Below are positions 1 to 3,000 of a stretch of 16,488 nt of DNA, in pieces. Position 1 is the stretch's first letter. The number at the start of each line of letters is the position of its first letter. The position numbers are program-made. Source of the DNA: a virus (Duplodnaviria > Heunggongvirae > Uroviricota > Caudoviricetes); IMG/VR virus record IMGVR_UViG_2778261569_000010, positions 1 through 16,488 of that record; one strand, 5' to 3'.

Positions 1-3000
1 CAGAGGCGGTCGAACTCCGCCTTCGCAAAATAAGCGGAAGCCTGGCGAAGGATATCGTTACTGCGGCGCAGTTCACGATTTTCACGTTCCAGCTCTTTCA
101 GACGCTGACGTTCAGCGCTGGTGAGCCCACCATCACCGCCCCCGGTATCCCGCTCATGCTGGCGAACCCAGACACGCAGAGTCTCCGGCGTACAGCCAAT
201 CTTTGGGGCAATGGAACAAATTGCCGCCCACTGTGAGTCATATTCATCCTGACTTTCCAGAACCATACGAATCGCCCGCTGACGGACTTCGGGGGAAAAA
301 CGAGTATTTTTAGTCATCCTGTTTACCTCTTTCTCAGGGAGTTTAGTCTCCAGGATTTCCGGGGCGGTTCATGCCAGTCTGCTGCAAAAGAAAGGTCAGG
401 CCTTATGGTGGAAATAATCACTCAGGCGAGAAAACATGCTGCCTTCCCCGACAGATTCCAGGGTAACCAGCGGCCAGTGCGCCACCTGTTTATCACGGTC
501 GTAAAGTTCAATTTCCCCTACCCGCTGATGGGCGCTAATTGGCGCGGTGAGCTCTTTACCATTAAGGGTATATTTGGCTTTGATATGTGGAATTTCGGCT
601 TTCGGTAGCACCATCCAGAACTCTTGTTCCGTTCCCAGGGCGATATTTTCTTTATCACCATACCAGATGCGTTCCGTACCGACCTTTTTCCTACGGTGCA
701 AAATTTGCACCGTAGTAAAGTTTTGTTGCCCCCAACGCAGTAATTTTTTTGCCTCTTCCTCACGACCTTTTGCGCTGTCAGCACCCATTACCACTGCAAT
801 GAGGCGACGCTGCCCGTCTATAGCCGAAGCAATAAGATTAAATCCGGCACCAGAAGTATGGCCCGTTTTCAGGCCGTCAACATTCATGGTCTTATCCCAC
901 AATAACCCGTTACGGTTTTGCTGGGTGATACCGTTCCAGGTGAGGCTTTTCTCACTGTACATATGATAAAACTCGGGCTCGCCGTGGATGATAGCGCGAG
1001 AAAGCACGGCTAAATCATAAGCCGAGCTATGCTGGCCAGGTGCATCCAGACCATGCACTGTTTCAAAATGCGTATCCTTGAGATGCAGCTTCTCGGCATA
1101 GTTGTTCATCATTTCAACAAACTGCCGTTGCCCACCGGCAATATAGTCAGCCAGAGCAACACACGCGTCATTTCCGGAATCCACAATTAAACCTCGGCTT
1201 AAATCACGTACCGATACGCGATCGCCCTCTTTCAAAAACATCAGTGAAGAACCGACAAACACCGGATTATCTTTCGCCCACGCATCACGCCCCACGGTGA
1301 CAATATCGTCTGGCGTAATGCGATGACTATCGATAGCGCGATCCACGACATAGCCCGTCATCAGCTTTGTCAGGCTGGCGGGATTACGCTGTTGATGCTC
1401 ATTACCCGCGGTGAGAATCTGACCGGTGGTGTAATCCATCAATACCCAGGACCCGGCATGAATCTCTGGAGGCTGAGGTGAAAAAGGAATGTTTTCCGCC
1501 GCAAAACCAGACGATAAATTAAAAACGAACAAAGAAGCAGCAATAATAAGACGGCGTTTCAACAGCAAACCCTCAGGTGTTTCAAATAGCTGTTCTTTTT
1601 ACGGAAATACTTATGAACTGGCTGGAATAAAGTGCAAGAAAATGTGACTACTATCTCATTTTTATCTGACATGATCTGTTGTCACTCGCTGCCAAATTGT
1701 CGCGCTAAAGCTGATTAGCACGGTGATATTTGATACTCTGGCAGACAGCAGAAATAACGGATTTAACCTAATGATGAATGACGGTAAGCAACAATCTACC
1801 TTTTTGTTTCACGATTACGCGCAATACCCCTGAGAACCGCCATGAACAAGGGTTTCATGATTTGTGATTTTAGTTTGGTACGCAATTTGGTACACAACAC
1901 TATTTTCACTTCATCGGGTAGTCATCAAACTCACCATAACGAGCATCGTTAATGATGTATGTGATCACCACAAACATCACATCTGGACTAGTTCCGTTTT
2001 CATGCGCAGGTATTTGTTTACGTCTCCCTTTCTGCAAATCCTAAAGATGAGATTTTGGTGTTTTGTGATATCTTTTATCCTCAGTTCTCTATCTATTATG
2101 CAAACCAGTAATGAACCATCACTATGTGATAGTGAGGCATCCGCTACATTAAGCGCAGAGAAATGATGCAGTGGTGGGCAGACTGGCTTGATGCTGGATT
2201 GAAATAAAACTAGAATGCATTCAAATATATACTTTATATTTTTATAAGGAGAAAGCGATGGTAGCCACTAGGCTAAATTCAATACAAATAATGCGCGGTA
2301 TTGCAGCATTAATTGTTGTTGCATTTCACATAAGATACAACTTATCTGTTTATGAGCAAAAAAATCTTGGAGACTTAATGTTTTCAAATGGAGAAGTAGG
2401 TGTATACCTTTTTTTTGTGATAAGCGGATTCATTATATCACTATCAACAAGAAGGAAAGAGTCGCCTTTAGAATTTAGCATTAAAAGATTACTTAGAATA
2501 TATCCTCCATACATATTTTCTTTTGCAATACTGCTTTTTTTATTGAATGAAAATTATAGATTAATGGATGTAGTAAAATCATTAATACTTATACCATTAA
2601 ACTCGCACGCCGCAGGTCCATATTACGGGTATAGTATACTCTTAGTTGCGTGGACACTTAGTTATGAGTTGTTCTTTTATTTTTGCTTTCTTGTATCAAT
2701 GTCATTAAGCCAAAAATATAGAGCGGTAATATGTTCATTGATCCTGTCATCACTAATTATATTTGGCAATTATTATTTATTTGGATCGATTGGGGTAAAT
2801 CCACACACAAGAGCATTTGATGGCGGTGGAATATTTGCAAGTATTATTTTCATAACAAACCCAATAATAATAAACTTTATATTAGGGATGCTTGCTGAGT
2901 TTATTTATAGCAATACAAAAACCAACAACAAACTTTTAAACAAAGCAATTAAAATGTTAGCTCCGATAGTTGCCGTAATATCAGTCTGGGGGATGCTATC

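Follow-up and report, generated by a model that had tools for sequence, protein, structure and literature searches.

When a prophage is found within the first codons of a host gene, is that gene lost to the lysogen? The question is raised by a stretch of 16,488 nucleotides (positions 1 to 16,488 of IMG/VR record IMGVR_UViG_2778261569_000010, assigned to the Caudoviricetes; the whole stretch is hereafter called the window), in which the host gene sbcB, encoding exonuclease I (ExoI), breaks off after 16 codons and is followed by phage DNA. The answer proposed here is that the gene is not lost. Very probably, the window contains the integrase-distal junction of a P22-like prophage that brings a surrogate 5' end for sbcB, and this surrogate restores the gene as a chimera at the other junction.

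The host side of the junction contains dacD, a D-Ala-D-Ala carboxypeptidase gene on the minus strand (396-1568), recognised as an open reading frame (ORF) and annotated under the match in thousands of Escherichia coli genomes. It is followed by the native dacD-sbcB intergenic region of 202 bp (1569-1770), which holds the upstream/promoter region of sbcB and is identical to that of uninterrupted loci. Codons 1-16 of sbcB occupy positions 1771-1818, and translation of 1771-1836 gives MMNDGKQQSTFLFHDY followed by AQYP*. The phage-derived part of the reading frame is thus four codons (AQYP), closed by a TGA at 1831-1833. The sbcB remnant as a whole (1771-1833, plus strand) encodes a 20-aa peptide without Glu17 and all downstream ExoI residues. 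The metal-binding residues of the ExoI HDYE motif are Asp15 and Glu17 (PMC3675492). The first of these is present in the stub and the second is absent, placing the break inside the motif, among the first residues of the catalytic site, where the original prediction had located it. The remnant, with the native promoter region and 16 codons, is a dead stub, and the upstream region at 1569-1770 is now detached from the body of sbcB. The GC content is 0.49-0.52 in dacD and drops to 0.30-0.39 across positions 1800-3450.

The junction was compared with 5426 complete E. coli genomes, using window positions 1400-2300 as the query (Shigella genomes lie outside this collection). In approximately 4,900 of the genomes the match is restricted to query positions 1-420, with dacD and sbcB annotated under it, which shows that identity to uninterrupted sbcB ends after g1819. 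At least 80% of the query, phage side included, was matched in 475 of the 5426 genomes. The 16 native codons and the divergence at 1819/1820 into AT-rich phage DNA, previously read from the window alone, are therefore placed exactly by comparison with other genomes.

Alignment with the uninterrupted dacD-sbcB locus of strain AR_0011, a comparison already suggested with the original prediction, defines a 13-bp attachment core, TTTCACGATTACG, at window 1807-1819 (plus strand). This crossover region comprises codons F13-H14-D15-Y16 and the first base of E17, and is annotated as a prophage attachment site of 'type 2851' in phages mEp234 and HK544. The core appears once in the window and twice in each of the E. 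coli strains E2863 and 8234, with the copies 42.3 kb and 44.1 kb apart, respectively. A four-way comparison of attachment sites is exact: attB in AR_0011 reads host-core-host, attP in mEp234 phage-core-phage, the window host-core-phage, and the far junction of E2863 and 8234 phage-core-host. This comparison, and the phage attP arm and phage genes beyond 1819, establish that a prophage is inserted in the 5' end of sbcB. By the convention that attL is the integrase-proximal junction (PMC2951348; applied to phage Sf101 in PMC4159516), the junction in the window is attR, the int-distal end. The core for Sf101/2851 has been given as 5'CGTAATCGTGAAA3' (PMC4159516). It is the same core, and the earlier suggestion that a Shigella serotype-converting phage uses sbcB was thus correct (PMC4159516).

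The phage side of the junction begins with the int-distal attP arm (1820-2193, plus strand). Approximately 1820-1975 of this arm is kept in all type-2851 phages compared, and the part up to approximately 2193 is common to mEp234, Sf101 and the Shiga toxin (Stx) phage 1717. Over 1820-2193 the window shows 95% identity to mEp234, to phage 1717 and to their relatives, and the DNA past 1819 also matches several Stx1a/Stx2c phages that are annotated with 'duplication due to insertion'. Could the divergence after 1819 nevertheless reflect no more than different alleles of sbcB, or could the 16 codons be a stray duplication? Lysogens do carry a duplication, but only the trivial one of the 13-bp core, whereas beyond 1819 the window is identical to the phage attP arm and then runs into phage genes, and thousands of genomes continue with sbcB at 1819. 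Strain variation and stray duplication at 1819/1820 are refuted by the E. coli comparison, the four-way att comparison and the free attP arms, and we give an origin without insertion next to no credence.

Whether ExoI is intact had been said to hinge on whether the phage attP carries a replacement 5' end. It does. The int-proximal attP arm reads ATG ACA GAC ACA GAT AAA CAA CCT ACC TTC CTC and then enters the core, TTT CAC GAT TAC G. The surrogate on this arm is accordingly ATG + 14 codons in the sbcB frame (MTDTDKQPTFLFHDY). In mEp234 the free attP reads ...ATGACAGACACAGATAAACAACCTACCTTCCTC-TTTCACGATTACG-cgcaatacc, with the 13-bp core annotated, and the same in-frame surrogate is found in HK140, HK544, APC_JM3.2, Sf101 (D3G), phage 1717 (a synonymous AAA>AAG) and two IMG/VR contigs (L010 and L018).

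The surrogate is also found joined to the host gene. Among complete E. coli genomes, O111:H8 strain 8234 is the best match to the whole window (91% coverage, 98.6% identity), and E2863 is 100% identical to window 1400-2300. In both strains the far junction consists of a divergent int, approximately 180 bp and the surrogate start, after which the core leads into the remainder of sbcB. The adjoining integrase, WP_001007947.1, is at least 99% identical to 2851/mEp234 Int, and the sbcB of this junction is annotated by PGAP as an intact exodeoxyribonuclease I of 474 aa (WP_000132553.1). The chimeric 474-aa protein differs at its N-terminus from native ExoI (475 aa) in residues 1-9 only, before TFLFHDYETFG, and its few remaining differences from the AR_0011 protein reflect ordinary variation between alleles. 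Over its whole length the chimera aligns with solved ExoI structures (PDB), with the Asp and Glu of HDYE kept. This exact 474-aa sequence is recorded on at least 1000 contigs, and the int-proximal phage arm is fused to sbcB in 581/5426 complete E. coli genomes (~11%). Given the start and 14 codons in free attP and full-length sbcB at the far junction of two related lysogens, an intact ExoI is favoured, and the branch of the prediction in which the lysogen is an sbcB mutant is unlikely.

We propose that a P22-like prophage of ~42-44 kb would have been inserted by a 'phage 2851'-type tyrosine integrase, with crossover in TTTCACGATTACG at sbcB codons 13-17. The native promoter region and 16 codons would be left behind as a stub, and the surrogate (phage upstream region, ATG + 14 codons MTDTDKQPTFLFHDY) would be fused in frame to sbcB from codon 17 onward. 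The far junction predicted for this genome would consist of int, ~180 bp, ATGACAGACACAGATAAACAACCTACCTTCCTC, the core and then GAAACCTTTGG..., with an open frame of 474 codons. Its product would be a 474-aa chimeric exonuclease I with the metal-binding Asp and Glu. By analogy with its relatives, this genome should hold the same far junction ~42-44 kb away, with the chimeric sbcB presumably transcribed from phage-arm DNA. The chimeric ExoI is expected to be active because of its conservation.

Several observations weigh against this proposal. The int-proximal junction of the source genome lies outside the window, which no complete genome in the collection matches in full (best coverage, 91%). 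Related prophages often contain copies of IS1203, making a rearranged far end possible though unlikely. A consensus scan of the phage arm found no sigma-70-like promoter upstream of the surrogate start, and an alignment of 17 diverged int-proximal arms, which revealed conserved arm repeats and periodic RACA motifs, contained no conserved -35/-10 elements. In the full-text literature, searched without the original paper on phage 2851 (Strauch 2008), no report of sbcB restoration or of an ExoI assay in lysogens was found, and one paper describes the site in terms of 'disruption' (PMC8309913).

These observations raise the possibility that integration has left the lysogen without a functional sbcB (an ExoI null mutant), through damage to the far junction in this genome or through a lack of expression of the chimera from phage-arm DNA. 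A far junction beyond the window, a phage arm in which no promoter-like site was found and a literature that calls the site 'disrupted' or 'occupied' (PMC8309913) would all be in keeping with such a mutant. The promoter scan, for its part, cannot decide expression, since a consensus promoter/terminator scan of the dacD-sbcB intergenic region also misses the native sbcB promoter; the sole site found in 1569-1770 is on the minus strand (1685-1658) and faces dacD. Against a null mutant, a full-length in-frame chimeric sbcB is annotated in E2863 and 8234, and in the 581-genome set each of the members sampled has sbcB listed at the matching position. Furthermore, an in-frame start is kept in 38 diverged arms and three independent free attP sites, which is hard to explain without selection. 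We consider a null mutant decidedly improbable.

The case for selection comes from relatives of the integrase in other hosts. Int relatives of 40-81% identity lie divergently ~180 bp from a full-length sbcB in representative genomes of ~15 other genera. These sbcB-adjacent integrases occur in Buttiauxella, Klebsiella, Pantoea, Erwinia, Tatumella, Serratia, Chimaeribacter, Rosenbergiella, Rahnella, Orbus, Gilliamella, Orbaceae, Photobacterium and Parendozoicomonas. Among the distinct non-native arms, every one (38/38) has an in-frame ATG, GTG or TTG located 11-15 (mostly 12) codons ahead of the His codon, with no stop in between, whereas the other two reading frames of the same arms have a start in 5/76 cases. 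Two diverged free attP sites show the same arrangement. Salmonella phage SEN34, whose Int is 60% identical, reads GTG...TTC CTC TTT CAC GAT TAC GAA and then continues into unrelated DNA, and IMG/VR contig L090 (Int 73% identical) carries a diverged surrogate similar to that of SEN34. In both surrogates the match to sbcB ends right after HDYE(T). The N-terminal codons of sbcB in the other genera would likewise be of phage origin, judging from their likeness to these free attP sites (L090 and SEN34) and their constant distance to int. The retention of an in-frame start over diverged arms and free attP sites speaks for selection on the phage lineage to leave sbcB open. A crossover within the metal-binding motif would fit codons that are conserved across hosts and would give the phages a target in multiple genera.

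Another explanation is that the junction in the window has been stranded by decay of the prophage, its int end lost or moved, for example by IS1203, in which case the status of sbcB would be unrelated to a canonical attL. An IS3-family element flanks dacD at the start of the window, related prophages hold one to three IS1203 copies, and disruption of Sf101-like prophages at sbcB by insertion sequences (IS) has been described in Shigella (PMC4159516). The ends are also not always kept together in E. coli, with 581 int-proximal against 475 int-distal junctions (the latter at >=80% coverage), so that ~100 genomes have a remnant or another int-distal arm at sbcB. On the other hand, the 14.7 kb of prophage DNA in the window run without a break in the order of a P22-like late region, their long ORFs are intact, and in the closest genomes, E2863 and 8234, both junctions are in place. 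A decayed prophage is in our judgement very improbable, and a complete prophage with a restored, chimeric sbcB at its other end is preferred.

The attP arms themselves contain putative recombination signals. Direct repeats TTGGTACGC / TTGGTACAC (TTGGTACRC) at 1875-1895 (plus strand) are candidate arm-type integrase binding sites. Three further repeats are located in the int-proximal arm of mEp234. Matches to this type of repeat number three in the window (0.21 expected) and five in the whole att region of mEp234 (0.26 expected), both well beyond chance. The repeats co-vary with the Int lineage, being TGTACTCA in SEN34 and xTGTACxC in others. The stretch of the int-proximal arm that separates the arm-type repeats from the surrogate start (L002, 2360-2500) carries RACA/GAACA motifs at a spacing of ~10 nt. 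They recur in diverged lineages and may be binding sites for a recombination directionality factor (RDF) or for host factors.

Truncated integrases were also encountered at sbcB. In L054 (E. coli ECMA0423, CP178302) and L053 (Shigella flexneri SFBU1023) an integrase reduced to residues 1-107 adjoins the gene. The sbcB start of L054 is recombinant, with phage ATGACAGACACAGATAAACAA joined to native TCTACCTTTTTGTTT, which points either to a crossover that took place ahead of the 13-bp core or to gene conversion in the homeologous codons.

Related integrases with other targets show a similar arrangement. Integrases of the argW site that are ~57% identical (Stx2a-phage type; IMG/VR loci L111-L137) have the first 24 nt of the argW tRNA gene beside the int start, and the free attP of L137 reads gtcctcttagttaaatggatataa before continuing into unrelated DNA. 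Supplying the 5' end of the target gene thus seems to be a trait of a wider integrase family. In Klebsiella phage ST340-VIM1phi10.1 (L058; MK422455) an integrase of 61% identity is located beside the start of a gene annotated as 'intracellular protease', and the junction ...GAAGATTACGAAAC resembles the sbcB core GATTACGAAAC. This may be a case in which the target gene was exchanged while the core stayed similar.

Replacement of the 5' end passes the upstream region of sbcB to phage DNA, so that how ExoI is regulated in lysogens becomes a straightforward question for experiment. The promoter region and the first ~9 residues are replaced by phage DNA that lies beside the int promoter and the arm-type sites, downstream of the leftward early operon. 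On these grounds it may be speculated that lysogeny puts ExoI under phage control, with its level changed in the lysogen or upon induction, and that the orphaned native promoter in turn reads into the phage acyltransferase gene, a reciprocal swap. We regard this as unlikely. If true, phage-controlled ExoI might benefit Erf/Red-type recombination of the phage.

The acyltransferase gene concerned (2258-3325, plus strand) encodes 355 aa, has a GC content of 30-35% and matches the Pfam family Acyl_transf_3 (E 2e-28; protein families were assigned throughout by Pfam matches). It is a candidate O-antigen-modifying moron. The ORF is intact in the window, annotated as frameshifted in 8234 and split into two coding sequences in E2863. 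Its identification as the oacB of Sf101 was considered and rejected, identity to Sf101 OacB being 26% over 167 aa. The gene has the same orientation as the sbcB remnant, and the orphaned native promoter region and stub point the same way. A consensus scan found no terminator-like site between 1771 and 2258, and a promoter-like site, TTGATG-17-TAGAAT, lies ahead of the gene at 2188-2216. Read-through from the host promoter into the moron is possible. Between the junction and the acyltransferase there is an ORF of 100 aa with a GTG start (1864-2166, plus strand), the positional homologue of Sf101 orf17. Its coding status is uncertain and it has no family match in Pfam.

The remainder of the phage part is transcribed from the minus strand. 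A P22-type tailspike (3366-5327) combines a head-binding domain (Pfam Head_binding, E 3e-65) with a beta-helix receptor-binding part (Beta_helix). It matches the tailspikes of HK620, CUS-3 and ECGD1, its head-binding end matching HK620/CUS-3. The DNA of the receptor-binding part (window 3388-4900) is 93.7% identical to the tail spike gene of ECGD1, a phage of 146 kb, and has 89% identity to Escherichia phage ECO111 5-P, which looks like module exchange between unrelated phage types. An immI-like region follows, with an antirepressor (5407-6375; Pfam P22_AR_N/P22_AR_C) and an Arc-family repressor (6378-6602; Pfam Arc). The rest of the P22-like late region (6897-16488) comprises a P63C-domain protein, DNA-ejection proteins, a tail needle, and gp10- and gp4-like head-completion genes, and the order and lengths of its ORFs match annotated prophage genes of 8234. 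The tailspike with its head-binding domain, the Ant/Arc immI region and the order of ejection and head-completion genes are those of P22-like (Lederbergvirus-type) phages.

At the opposite, bacterial end of the window, the 5' part of an IS3-family (IS1203-like) transposase orfA was identified (3-317, minus strand; Pfam HTH_Tnp_1, E 2e-12). The element to which it belongs (window 1-370) lies between dacD and sbmC; an IS1203 is located in the same place in 8234, and the element is absent in E2863. Its presence suggests a source resembling O111 EHEC. A Shigella origin was also considered, in view of the IS and the Sf101-like layout, but O111 EHEC genomes gave the best matches in the collection, which is without Shigella.

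Both the sbcB attachment site and gene-restoring integration as a mechanism are already known, and genome annotation already treats the chimeric sbcB as intact. The additions made here are modest: the surrogate start is made explicit, and its frequency in E. coli and conservation over ~15 genera are given. They do correct a tempting misreading, as a prophage 'inside' sbcB would not turn its lysogen into an ExoI mutant. Approximately 11% of complete E. coli genomes (581/5426), many Stx2c O157 and O111 enterohaemorrhagic E. coli (EHEC) included, should not be scored as sbcB-disrupted. The locus is also a clean example of phages that target the most conserved codons of a protein gene, those of a metal-binding motif, while supplying a new 5' end.

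Compared with known systems, the site in the window has the features of the type-2851 sbcB site, namely the 13-bp core, a position in the 5' end of sbcB beside dacD and a flank homologous to the attP arm of free phages. Use of this site is common in O157. All Stx2c phages typed in one O157 study (74/74) sat in sbcB (PMC4645166), and the gene was occupied in 26.9% of 346 O157 strains (PMC8309913). Phage 2851, the Stx2c/Stx1a-converting phages in sbcB of E. coli O157:H7, mEp234, HK140 and HK544 share the identical core, a homologous int-distal arm and the same position in sbcB (PMC4645166). They differ from the prophage described here, a P22-like podovirus with tailspike, Ant/Arc and acyltransferase; no stx genes were found in the window.

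In the recombination module of KplE1, HK620, Sf6 and CUS-3, in which the int promoter overlaps attL, the int start likewise faces the attachment site and int is transcribed away from it, with arm-type repeats between int and core, and an AlpA/TorI-like RDF gene is likewise uncoupled from int (PMC2951348). These phages target the tRNA gene argW (PMC2951348), in contrast to the 5' end of a protein-coding gene targeted here.

Shigella flexneri phage Sf101 is likewise P22/Sf6-like, and has the same core and the same order of attP, small ORF, acyltransferase and tailspike. An Acyl_transf_3 gene between attP and tailspike is shared with the phages encoding Sf6 Oac and Sf101 OacB, although the gene is no orthologue of oacB. 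Sf101 differs in that its int-distal arm diverges right after the core, and the closest hosts of the present prophage are O111 EHEC.

Phage 21 and the e14 element, which integrate in icd, similarly bring a diverged copy of the end of their target gene, and the lysogen keeps a functional chimeric gene. The icd phages replace the 3' end of the gene. In sbcB, by contrast, it is the 5' end that is replaced, so that the phage would supply the start codon as well as the N-terminal residues and the regulatory DNA upstream.

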